DNA of 64,000 nt from an uncultured Candidatus Saccharibacteria bacterium (GCA_964426555.1 CAYRQJ010000001.1:894-64893); one strand, 5' to 3'; numbered from the stretch's first letter, positions 25,900 through 26,252 are shown. Numbers and translations are program-made. Notes: generated by a model from the sequence alone, not told the origin.

Positions 25900-25902
25900 C
25901 TT

Positions 25903-25936
25903 GATTAAAAAACACGAATTTCTTCGTGTTTTTTAG
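25903..25936 (+). terminator. Hairpin terminator (copy 1 of a duplicated terminator)
   Basis: ttgattaaaaaacacgaatttcttcgtgtttttt. An identical copy sits at 26219-26252. Confidence 0.6.
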
Positions 25937-26052
25937 TACAAGTCCGAGCCGCAGGGATGTTTTTGTTTGACACTGAGCTTGCCGAAGTGGAGAGGCAAAA
26001 ACCCCGAGGCGGGCTCGCGAAAATTTTCCGTCAGGAAAATTATTTGTGAGGA
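25937..26052 (+). ncRNA. Candidate structured small RNA, copy A
   Basis: Closing stem caagtcc/ggacttg, inner hairpin ttttcc-gtca-ggaaaa, conserved gatgtttttgtttga and gcaaaaacc blocks shared with copy B. Confidence 0.4.
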
Positions 26053-26063
26053 CTTGTAAATAT

Positions 26064-26093
26064 CTAGAAAACCCCACTGCTGGGGTTTTCTAG
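26064..26093 (+). terminator. Hairpin between the two RNA copies
   Basis: ctagaaaaccccactgctggggttttctag. Confidence 0.5.
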
Positions 26094-26218
26094 ATTTTGT
26101 CGGTCGGAGCGATGTTTTTGTTTGAGTAATAACGAAAGGTAAGGGTACACTTATGCAAAGCCAAAAACCGCGAGACGGGGTCGCAAGATTTTTCGTCAGA
26201 AAAATACTTGTGACCTTG
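26094..26218 (+). ncRNA. Candidate structured small RNA, copy B
   Basis: Same architecture as copy A with compensatory changes (ggtc/gacc closing stem, tttttc-gtca-gaaaaa hairpin). Confidence 0.4.
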
Positions 26219-26252
26219 ATTAAAAAACACGAATTTCTTCGTGTTTTTTATG
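26219..26252 (+). terminator. Hairpin terminator (copy 2)
   Basis: Identical to 25903-25936. Confidence 0.6.

Follow-up and report, generated by a model that had tools for sequence, protein, structure and literature searches.

What are the two similar, structured elements that follow an isoleucine tRNA gene in an uncultured Candidatus Saccharibacteria bacterium, and why do they stand beside a tRNA? The stretch of DNA analysed here (64,000 nucleotides, GCA_964426555.1 CAYRQJ010000001.1:894-64893; hereafter the window) encodes tRNA-Ile(UAU) at 25826-25900 on the + strand (ARAGORN; 65.7 bits with the Rfam tRNA model), and an array of two elements, A and B, is attached to this gene. An initial annotation, made from the sequence alone, had proposed that A and B are functional RNA folds of an unrecognised family and not a decaying duplication. 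We find that A and B stand in tandem and belong to one large family of structured RNAs, whose members lie just 3' of tRNA genes in Patescibacteria (the candidate phyla radiation, CPR) and Elusimicrobia. The family is under purifying selection and is coupled, both physically and by sequence, to tRNA 3' ends.

We scanned one genome per GTDB species for the pattern ATGTTTTTGTTTGA-N15-45-CAAAAACC and identified at least 120 loci, compared with about 2 matches expected by chance. Among the loci listed, nearly all are from Elusimicrobia, including Elusimicrobiaceae, Endomicrobiaceae and the cultured Parelusimicrobium proximum; loci from other lineages include four Saccharibacteria and one Nomurabacteria metagenome-assembled genome. 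The copies collected number at least 170 and come from Elusimicrobia, Saccharibacteria, Nomurabacteria and CPR-like metagenome contigs. A covariance model (R1) was built from 33 Elusimicrobia units with a hand-drawn structure and without the window sequences. R1 has exactly two matches in the window, unit A (25908-26060, +; 96.9 bits, E = 9e-23) and unit B (26066-26224, +; 82.1 bits, E = 5e-19). Each match spans model positions 1-147, and both units are thus complete family members; B has an enlarged variable hairpin. Across the window together with the first 99 genome loci, the model has 122 matches, including diverged units missed by the pattern; a second set, of the other genome loci plus 25 CPR-like metagenome contigs, has 59 (with a unit in 25/25 contigs), and three viral contigs have 7.

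The family fold consists of a hairpin, H1, followed by a junction of P1, P2-P3 and P4. The H1 loop is almost always A-CUGC-U. After H1 come a 5' arm and the junction sequence GAA(A/G); P2 and G(G/C)A then lead into P3, which is formed by GCG-AU-GUUUUUG-UUUGAG, a variable hairpin and CGAAAGG-CAAAAAC-CGC. P3 is followed by GA, the second strand of P2 (P2'), GG, a long P4 hairpin with a GUCA loop, and a 3' strand that pairs with the arm.

Covariation supports this fold throughout. Among 119 distinct sequences, 95.1% of cells are in standard pairs (76.0% in shuffles), both sides change in 37 of the 46 pairs, and compensatory pairs occur in every helix. The covariation score is 0.450, compared with 0.136 in shuffles and at most 0.074 when partner columns are slid, in an alignment that was fitted to R1 and is hence biased toward the structure. 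RNAalifold applied to a plain MAFFT alignment, made earlier, recovered H1, P3 and P4 with 21 compensatory pairs. Variants of the P3b helix also covary, with AUCCGAG/CGAGGAU and UUGUGUGAG/CGAACAC replacing GUUUUUG/CAAAAAC. This family-wide covariation backs the original proposal of functional folds.

The units do not have the properties of protein-coding sequence. The length of the variable segment falls into all three modulo-3 classes (59, 36 and 33 units), and the frame that opens at the conserved ATG is not maintained, with stops after 5 to more than 100 codons across units. The open reading frames (ORFs) of A and B are unrelated, in agreement with the earlier statement that no reading frame is conserved between the copies. 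We also considered a kissing interaction between the CUGC of the H1 loop and a GCAG in the junction. The same loop occurs with GGA in 57 units and with GCA in 36, so there is no covariation and the interaction is unsupported.

The array in the window can be read against this fold. An exact 36-nt direct repeat, CTTGATTAAAAAACACGAATTTCTTCGTGTTTTTTA, is present on the + strand at 25900-25935 and again at 26215-26250, where zero such matches are expected by chance; this confirms the exact second terminator copy that had been described. The first copy comprises the tRNA trailer and a terminator-like hairpin, AAAAAACACGAA-UUUC-UUCGUGUUUUUU (25906-25935, +), of which R1 aligns 25910-25931 to H1 of unit A. 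By comparison with the plain terminator of the orthologous tRNA-Ile in locus L174, this hairpin appears to be the native tRNA-Ile terminator. Unit A continues with a P1 of 7 bp (25939-25945 / 26050-56), P2 (25948-50 / 26008-10), P3 with its variable hairpin (25954-25968 / 25994-26005) and P4 (26013-26050, GUCA loop at 26030-33), all on the + strand and placed by the family model alignment. A middle hairpin with the tip CCCCA CUGC UGGGG followed by a U run (26059-26098, +; an inverted repeat with 18-nt arms, 94% complementary) is H1 of unit B and probably also terminates unit A. In unit B, the same alignment gives, again on the + strand, P2 (GUC/GAC, 26103-05 / 26174-76), P3 (26109-26123 / 26159-26171) and P4, which is closed by GGUC/GACC and has its GUCA loop at 26195-98 (26179-26215); B's own P1 is weak in the R1 alignment. 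The second copy of the direct repeat (26215-26250, +) closes the array by repeating the trailer and terminator hairpin of the tRNA, and it is the probable terminator of the whole array. A terminator scan made a single call, at 26221-26250. U-rich stretches follow the hairpins at 25906-35 and 26059-98, both of which lie in the conserved H1 position in R1.

Most of what had been noticed in this array stands, and some of it changes. The blocks reported as shared by A and B are indeed common to both, GATGTTTTTGTTTGA at 25956 and 26111 and CAAAAACCSCGAGRCGGG at 25996 and 26162. The inner-hairpin co-change, UUUUCC/GGAAAA in A and UUUUUC/GAAAAA in B, is confirmed by the family model as the inner helix of P4. 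The model agrees with further compensatory differences between the two units in P2 (GCC/GGC in A, GUC/GAC in B), P3a (GGG/CCC, GCG/CGC) and the outer helix of P4 (CUC/GAG, GUC/GAC). The closing stem assigned to B (ggtc...gacc) has to be withdrawn, as its strands belong to two different helices: the GUC is the 5' half of P2, with its partner GAC at 26174-26176, and the GACC at 26212-26215 forms the 3' side of P4, opposite GGUC at 26179-26182. The two hairpins seen next to the elements are present, but they are better taken as parts of the units than as separate terminators because they fill the family's H1 position, and the units are therefore about 150-160 nt long and not about 110 nt. Unit A begins 8 nt past tRNA-Ile and unit B begins 6 nt past A. 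Folding is stronger than in shuffled sequence for A (z = -5.0), for B (z = -3.95) and for the whole stretch of tRNA, A and B (z = -10). The minimum free energy (MFE) fold of B alone fails to give the family structure, and single-sequence folding is unreliable here.

The family appears not to have been described before. We used cmscan with Rfam release 15 at gathering thresholds and at permissive E-values. At gathering thresholds, the window and 10 family loci returned tRNA and tmRNA alone, and the lack of a recognised family in the earlier reading is thus borne out. Permissive scans (25700-26400 at E <= 10; L114 3300-4100 at E <= 1) returned low-scoring, unrelated families driven by the terminator hairpins. 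These scans gave no support to any of the candidates that we considered, namely 5S rRNA (with its three-way junction, length of about 115 nt and GCCGAAGUGG stretch), signal recognition particle RNA, 6S RNA, a Y RNA (GGUCCGA-like 5' end), a hammerhead (UGAG-stem-GAAAG) or a K-turn. Nor did Rfam place the units with RNase P RNA, YrlA, self-cleaving ribozymes, riboswitches, GOLLD, ROOL or HEARO. No prior description was found in the literature searched, which included motif-discovery papers; subscription-only work lay outside the search, and an earlier account is possible there. GOLLD and ROOL are large orphan RNAs that are often found near tRNAs (PMC5737381). The units resemble them as orphan structured RNAs with a tRNA gene association and possible co-transcription. 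They differ in being 140-170 nt long, chromosomal and without an Rfam match, whereas GOLLD and ROOL exceed 500 nt, are often prophage-borne and have no fixed distance or match to the tRNA.

Several variants of the unit were observed. In units of the Elusimicrobia loci L114 (3470-3770), L021, L085, L093, L087 (second unit) and L059 (locus end), about 270-290 nt of additional sequence separate the 5' strand of P1 from P2 and make up a domain closed by a long stem, GGGUUGGCAAGG...CCUUGCCAACCC. The domain has no Rfam match and could represent either an optional part of the RNA or a nested insertion. Three CPR units (L163 130-515, -; L163 4545-4790, +; L155 6700-6945, -) combine Elusimicrobia-style arms with a smaller or different core: two segments antisense to the acceptor/T 3' strand of the tRNA, X' and T', flank H1, a tail copy is present, and a simple hairpin replaces P2-P3. 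Given these units, the family appears to be modular. A lone H1 hairpin with the CUGC loop and no core often ends arrays, as 3' of the last unit in L006, L017, L091, L094 and L100 and in L173 (8100-8190). It may be that H1 delimits a unit at both ends, or that H1 is a hotspot for recombination or deletion.

The question of whether copies elsewhere also follow tRNA genes, raised by the initial annotation, has a strongly positive answer. In genome loci, either a tRNA on the same strand ends 56-108 nt before the conserved AUG or the unit comes second or third in a tandem array; nearly all units follow a tRNA or another unit on the same strand. In unit-bearing Elusimicrobia loci, 78/108 tRNAs have a unit within 150 nt, and in CPR-like contigs with a detected upstream tRNA the R1 match starts 8-12 nt past the tRNA. 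Overall, 33 tRNA species precede units. Units can also be followed by a tRNA. L172 has the order tRNA-Leu, unit, tRNA-Lys with a spacer of 0 nt, and L104 has tRNA-Glu, unit, 24 nt, tRNA-Val; from this gene order, co-transcription of units with tRNAs is very likely. The sequence 3' of the unit varies by locus and may be another tRNA, a terminator or the start of an ORF.

We rejected a phage origin for the family. Of 27 pattern matches in IMG/VR, real units are present in 3 contigs alone, and the units lie in host DNA. These units adjoin 3' fragments of tRNA-Ser at provirus ends, so the prophages integrated into the tRNA upstream of the unit. In these proviruses (L132, L129, L121), the border consists of the tRNA 3' fragment CTCCCTCTCCG and the unit; in L132, units are found at 1440-1800 and 10260-10620, in opposite orientation and about 8.7 kb apart.

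The coupling by sequence was missed by the earlier reading, which described the terminator copy at the end of the array but neither recognised it as a copy of the tRNA trailer nor noted the complementarity between the 5' arm and the 3' end and trailer of the tRNA. In Elusimicrobia, the tail of the unit repeats the 3' part of the adjacent tRNA. Per-position identity is 0.15 at tRNA position 54, 0.00 at 55 and 0.74-0.94 at 56-73, and identity to the first ten trailer bases is 0.69-0.79; the repeat often runs on through the terminator, with examples of 35-43 nt. Like the end of the window array, Elusimicrobia tails can repeat the tRNA 3' end, trailer and terminator. The 5' part of the unit is the antisense counterpart. 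T' pairs with tRNA positions 54-62 and X' with 64-73, and the two flank H1, such that X' and T' together are antisense to the tRNA 3' strand and are split by H1; in L105 the match is exact but for one base. Each of these segments fits its own tRNA better than other tRNAs, with values of 9.6 vs 6.9 for T' complementarity, 5.6 vs 3.6 for X' complementarity to positions 64-73, and 15.2 vs 5.5 for tail identity.

In nearly every CPR locus, the arm pairs across the end of the tRNA, covering its final 3-4 nt and 5-9 nt of trailer, and H1 is the tip of a long hairpin that starts inside the tRNA. UCCA|CAAAAGC pairs in this way with GCUUUUGUGGA, and GGA|CUUG of the window with CAAGUCC: the CAAGUCC of the unit A arm (25939-45) is complementary to GGACUUG at 25897-25903, which comprises the tRNA end and the start of the trailer. 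Complementarity of the arm to the tRNA end and trailer is 8.9 for the own locus and 6.4 for other loci. Most CPR units have a weak tail mimic; that of unit A is clear, with GGACUUG at 26050-56 matching the same tRNA end, and the end of the array is the exact 36-nt trailer/hairpin copy. Either the pre-tRNA 3' end or the unit's own tail could thus serve as partner of the arm, which is complementary to both; in the MFE fold of the window tRNA with A and B, the arm is paired with the pre-tRNA 3' end.

Some RNAs with other functions share parts of this arrangement. The Elusimicrobia X' and T' segments, antisense to tRNA positions 54-73 and split by H1, have the same topology as an H/ACA pseudouridylation pocket. 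The CPR arm resembles RNAs that pair with a tRNA 3' end, such as the T-box antiterminator bulge and RNase P external guide sequences, in that it pairs with the end of the acceptor strand. Unlike T-box, H/ACA and external guide RNAs, the units carry their own copy of the target (the tail) and are located in cis, 3' of the tRNA; neither sequence similarity nor an Rfam match links them to any of the three.

The units have been gained or lost on short timescales in the window lineage. In the relative L173, ftsH is 91% identical to that of the window at the DNA level and the membrane-protein gene next to the array is 97% identical. L173 keeps the tRNA, the 36-nt segment, unit A (228/229 bases identical) and a CUGC hairpin directly after A; it has neither the B core nor the second 36-nt copy, and the junction lies at an imperfect 8-nt repeat, TTTTGTC/TTTTATC. 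The difference reflects either a deletion in L173 or an insertion in the window lineage. In L174 and L175, where the FtsH protein is 78% identical, tRNA-Ile(UAU) is followed by a plain terminator and zero units. Orthologous tRNA-Ile genes thus carry 2, 1 or 0 units. In Elusimicrobia, similarity is 0.762 between units behind the same tRNA in different genomes and 0.725 between units behind different tRNAs in the same genome, the latter equal to the background of 0.725; this indicates old locus residents and not a currently spreading repeat, and we reject recent spread within Elusimicrobia genomes since same-genome units are no more alike than background. Identical tandem duplicates are present in L009, L044, L070 and L082.

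We favour, with a probability of roughly 0.55, a reading in which the RNA would be made together with its tRNA and cut out by tRNA-processing enzymes, with the arm switching between the pre-tRNA 3' end and its mimic in the unit. Units would be made as 3' extensions of tRNA transcripts by read-through of a leaky H1/trailer hairpin. Cleavage by RNase Z at the tRNA discriminator would leave CPR-type units with their 5' end. The substrate of RNase P would be the following tRNA, as in L172 and L104, or the acceptor-like helix of arm and tail, and in Elusimicrobia this acceptor-like and T-stem-like helix could supply the other processing sites. The arm would alternate between the pre-tRNA 3' end with its trailer and the internal mimic, and this alternation may couple folding of the conserved core to the state or accessibility of the tRNA 3' end.

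The closest known parallels are plant tRNA-snoRNA genes, the tRNA-miRNA-encoded RNAs (TMER) of murine gammaherpesvirus 68 (MHV68), MALAT1/mascRNA, tmRNA and the bacterial YrlA Y RNAs, with which the units share an abutting same-strand tRNA or tRNA-like part. As in those tRNA-processed RNAs, the CPR unit starts at the tRNA 3' end, and the ends of the Elusimicrobia unit may form an acceptor-/T-stem-like helix in which the discriminator, the trailer and sometimes CCA are copied. These end features would fit maturation by RNase Z and RNase P. The likeness to tRNA has bounds: in Elusimicrobia, X' pairs with tail positions 64-73 and T' with 56-62, the T-loop is absent and the discriminator is often paired, and in the window GGACUUG alone is common to the unit and the tRNA end. 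Unlike the tRNA-processed RNAs, the units are bacterial, multi-copy and located behind 33 tRNA species, each matched, and their core resembles none of them.

A related and more tentative possibility is that the units are cis riboregulators of tRNA biogenesis, that is, a sensor domain on most Elusimicrobia and many CPR tRNA transcripts. The arm could bind and mask the 3' end of the pre-tRNA (and the entire acceptor/T 3' strand in Elusimicrobia), or the mimic could neutralise the arm, and a ligand or protein bound by the core could gate tRNA 3' maturation globally. Alternatively, the units could form an RNA-guided system that targets tRNA 3' ends.

A number of observations weigh against the co-transcribed, tRNA-processed RNA that we favour. 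A terminator-like hairpin stands between the tRNA and the unit core, so transcription relies on read-through or an unseen promoter. In CPR, the tail mimic and the arm-to-tail helix are barely over background (5.8 vs 5.4), so a two-state switch is not established there. An arm that matches the tRNA better than its own tail is also expected if both drift from a fixed tRNA. The presence and absence of units among close CPR relatives shows that the unit is dispensable at the tRNA-Ile locus. Counts of G-U and A-C pairs give a weak strand signal (79 vs 58, with two invariant U-G pairs excluded). A single-stranded DNA structure in place of RNA is less likely. Five features of the distribution would suit a mobile element: units occur in many copies and in tandem arrays that include identical ones; arrays are flanked by direct repeats of 35-45 nt with a sharp left border in the T-loop (55|56), the site class of T-loop-specific integrases; close CPR relatives have 2, 1 or 0 units at the orthologous tRNA-Ile; the core is nearly identical across two phyla; and arrays often end in a lone H1 hairpin.

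These five features are the case for a selfish, non-autonomous mobile element of the miniature inverted-repeat transposable element (MITE), miniature integrative or retro-element kind that targets the 3' ends of tRNA genes. The fold would then serve propagation, for example by a trans-acting recombinase or reverse transcriptase, and the second copy of the tRNA 3' part would represent duplicated target sequence or an att-type repeat. The units do recall REP/BIME sequences, MITEs (Correia, RUP, ERIC) and tRNA-targeting integrative elements in being multi-copy, intergenic, hairpin-forming, tandem and variably present, and their direct repeat begins in the T-loop as in elements with T-loop-specific integrases. 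They differ from all of these in having many tRNA targets, a covarying multi-helix fold and no spread within Elusimicrobia genomes. We saw no recombinase, transposase or reverse transcriptase at the window locus or in the neighbourhoods read, and we found no terminal inverted repeats, short perfect target-site duplication or nearby transposase as in a MITE or insertion sequence. A repeat of the tRNA 3' part, as in an integrative element, is present (from position 56 in Elusimicrobia; the 36-nt trailer repeat in the window), but the units have no integrase, are 150-320 nt long and occur behind 33 tRNA species, each with matched ends, which is unlike the behaviour of a site-specific integrase. 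Similarities among the Elusimicrobia units (0.725 vs 0.725; 0.762 for the same tRNA) point to old, vertical inheritance and not to recent spread, and the matches in viral contigs are host flanks of prophages and not cargo. We consider a mobile element unlikely on this evidence. A mixed history, in which a once-mobile element is now a host RNA, is possible.

Less probable still is an independent family of trans-acting small RNAs that would use neighbouring tRNAs for read-through and processing, with the arm/tail match a functionless by-product of local duplication. The core is very strongly conserved regardless of tRNA identity, genomes carry several copies, and tRNAs can flank the unit on both sides, all of which would be expected of such a family; parallels elsewhere are tRNA-snoRNA genes, MHV68 tRNA-miRNA genes and MALAT1/mascRNA. 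The arm argues otherwise. In CPR it spans the tRNA/trailer junction and reaches 3-4 nt inside the tRNA in nearly every locus, which is hard to obtain as a by-product, and its complementarity is strong where tail mimicry is weak.

It is very improbable that the units are elaborate terminators or insulators, or riboswitch-like leaders of a downstream gene. The hairpins that flank units resemble intrinsic terminators with their U runs, and in some CPR contigs an ORF begins about 10 nt after the unit. Junction and loop sequences conserved across phyla and covariation in four helices exceed what a terminator needs, and a cis leader is not indicated either, as the next gene in the window, for a membrane protein (26300-27403, -), is convergent with the array and downstream content varies among loci. 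A decaying local duplication or chance similarity without function, suggested at most by the fact that two copies alone were visible in the window before searching, is refuted by at least 170 homologues in two phyla, compensatory changes in every helix and E-values of 1e-19 to 1e-23 for A and B from a model built without them.

The genes around the array are ordinary chromosomal genes, namely recG, glutamate racemase, a GIY-YIG protein, a C39-like peptidase and ftsH. By its FtsH homologues, the organism belongs to the Patescibacteria, close to Paceibacterota/Parcubacteria. An exact-sequence search with the peptidase protein matched no contig. The GIY-YIG protein is a stand-alone domain of 84 aa (24323-24577, -); its gene is flanked by those for glutamate racemase and the peptidase and lies some 1.2 kb from the array, and no evidence was found that ties it to the units. 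Elsewhere in the window, tRNA-Ser(GCU) is directly followed by a tRNA-Ser with the anticodon ACU (16937-17116, -; ARAGORN; 52.8 bits with the Rfam tRNA model). A serine tRNA with A34 is unusual among bacteria. The same pair occurs in the related metagenome contig L163, at 4492-4581 and 5504-5591. The window also encodes a tmRNA (32437-32832, +; Rfam, 113 bits) with the tag peptide ANTAAKSIRSPFAFGTSMTFA; in relatives the gene adjoins smpB, and the tag of the relative L173 is identical.

If our favoured reading of co-transcription and tRNA-type processing is true, most stand-alone tRNA genes of Elusimicrobia (78/108 in the loci examined) and many of those in CPR carry a conserved RNA domain, each copy of which is fitted to the particular tRNA 3' end that precedes it. 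We know of no bacterial precedent for such a domain. R1 can annotate the family across genomes, and a cultured host is at hand in Parelusimicrobium proximum Dip518, the source of loci L038 and L107; Elusimicrobium minutum and Saccharibacteria co-cultures, which lie outside the scans made here, are further cultured hosts. The finding suggests an unrecognised layer in the processing or control of tRNA transcripts, or a new route of small-RNA expression, in these little-studied lineages.

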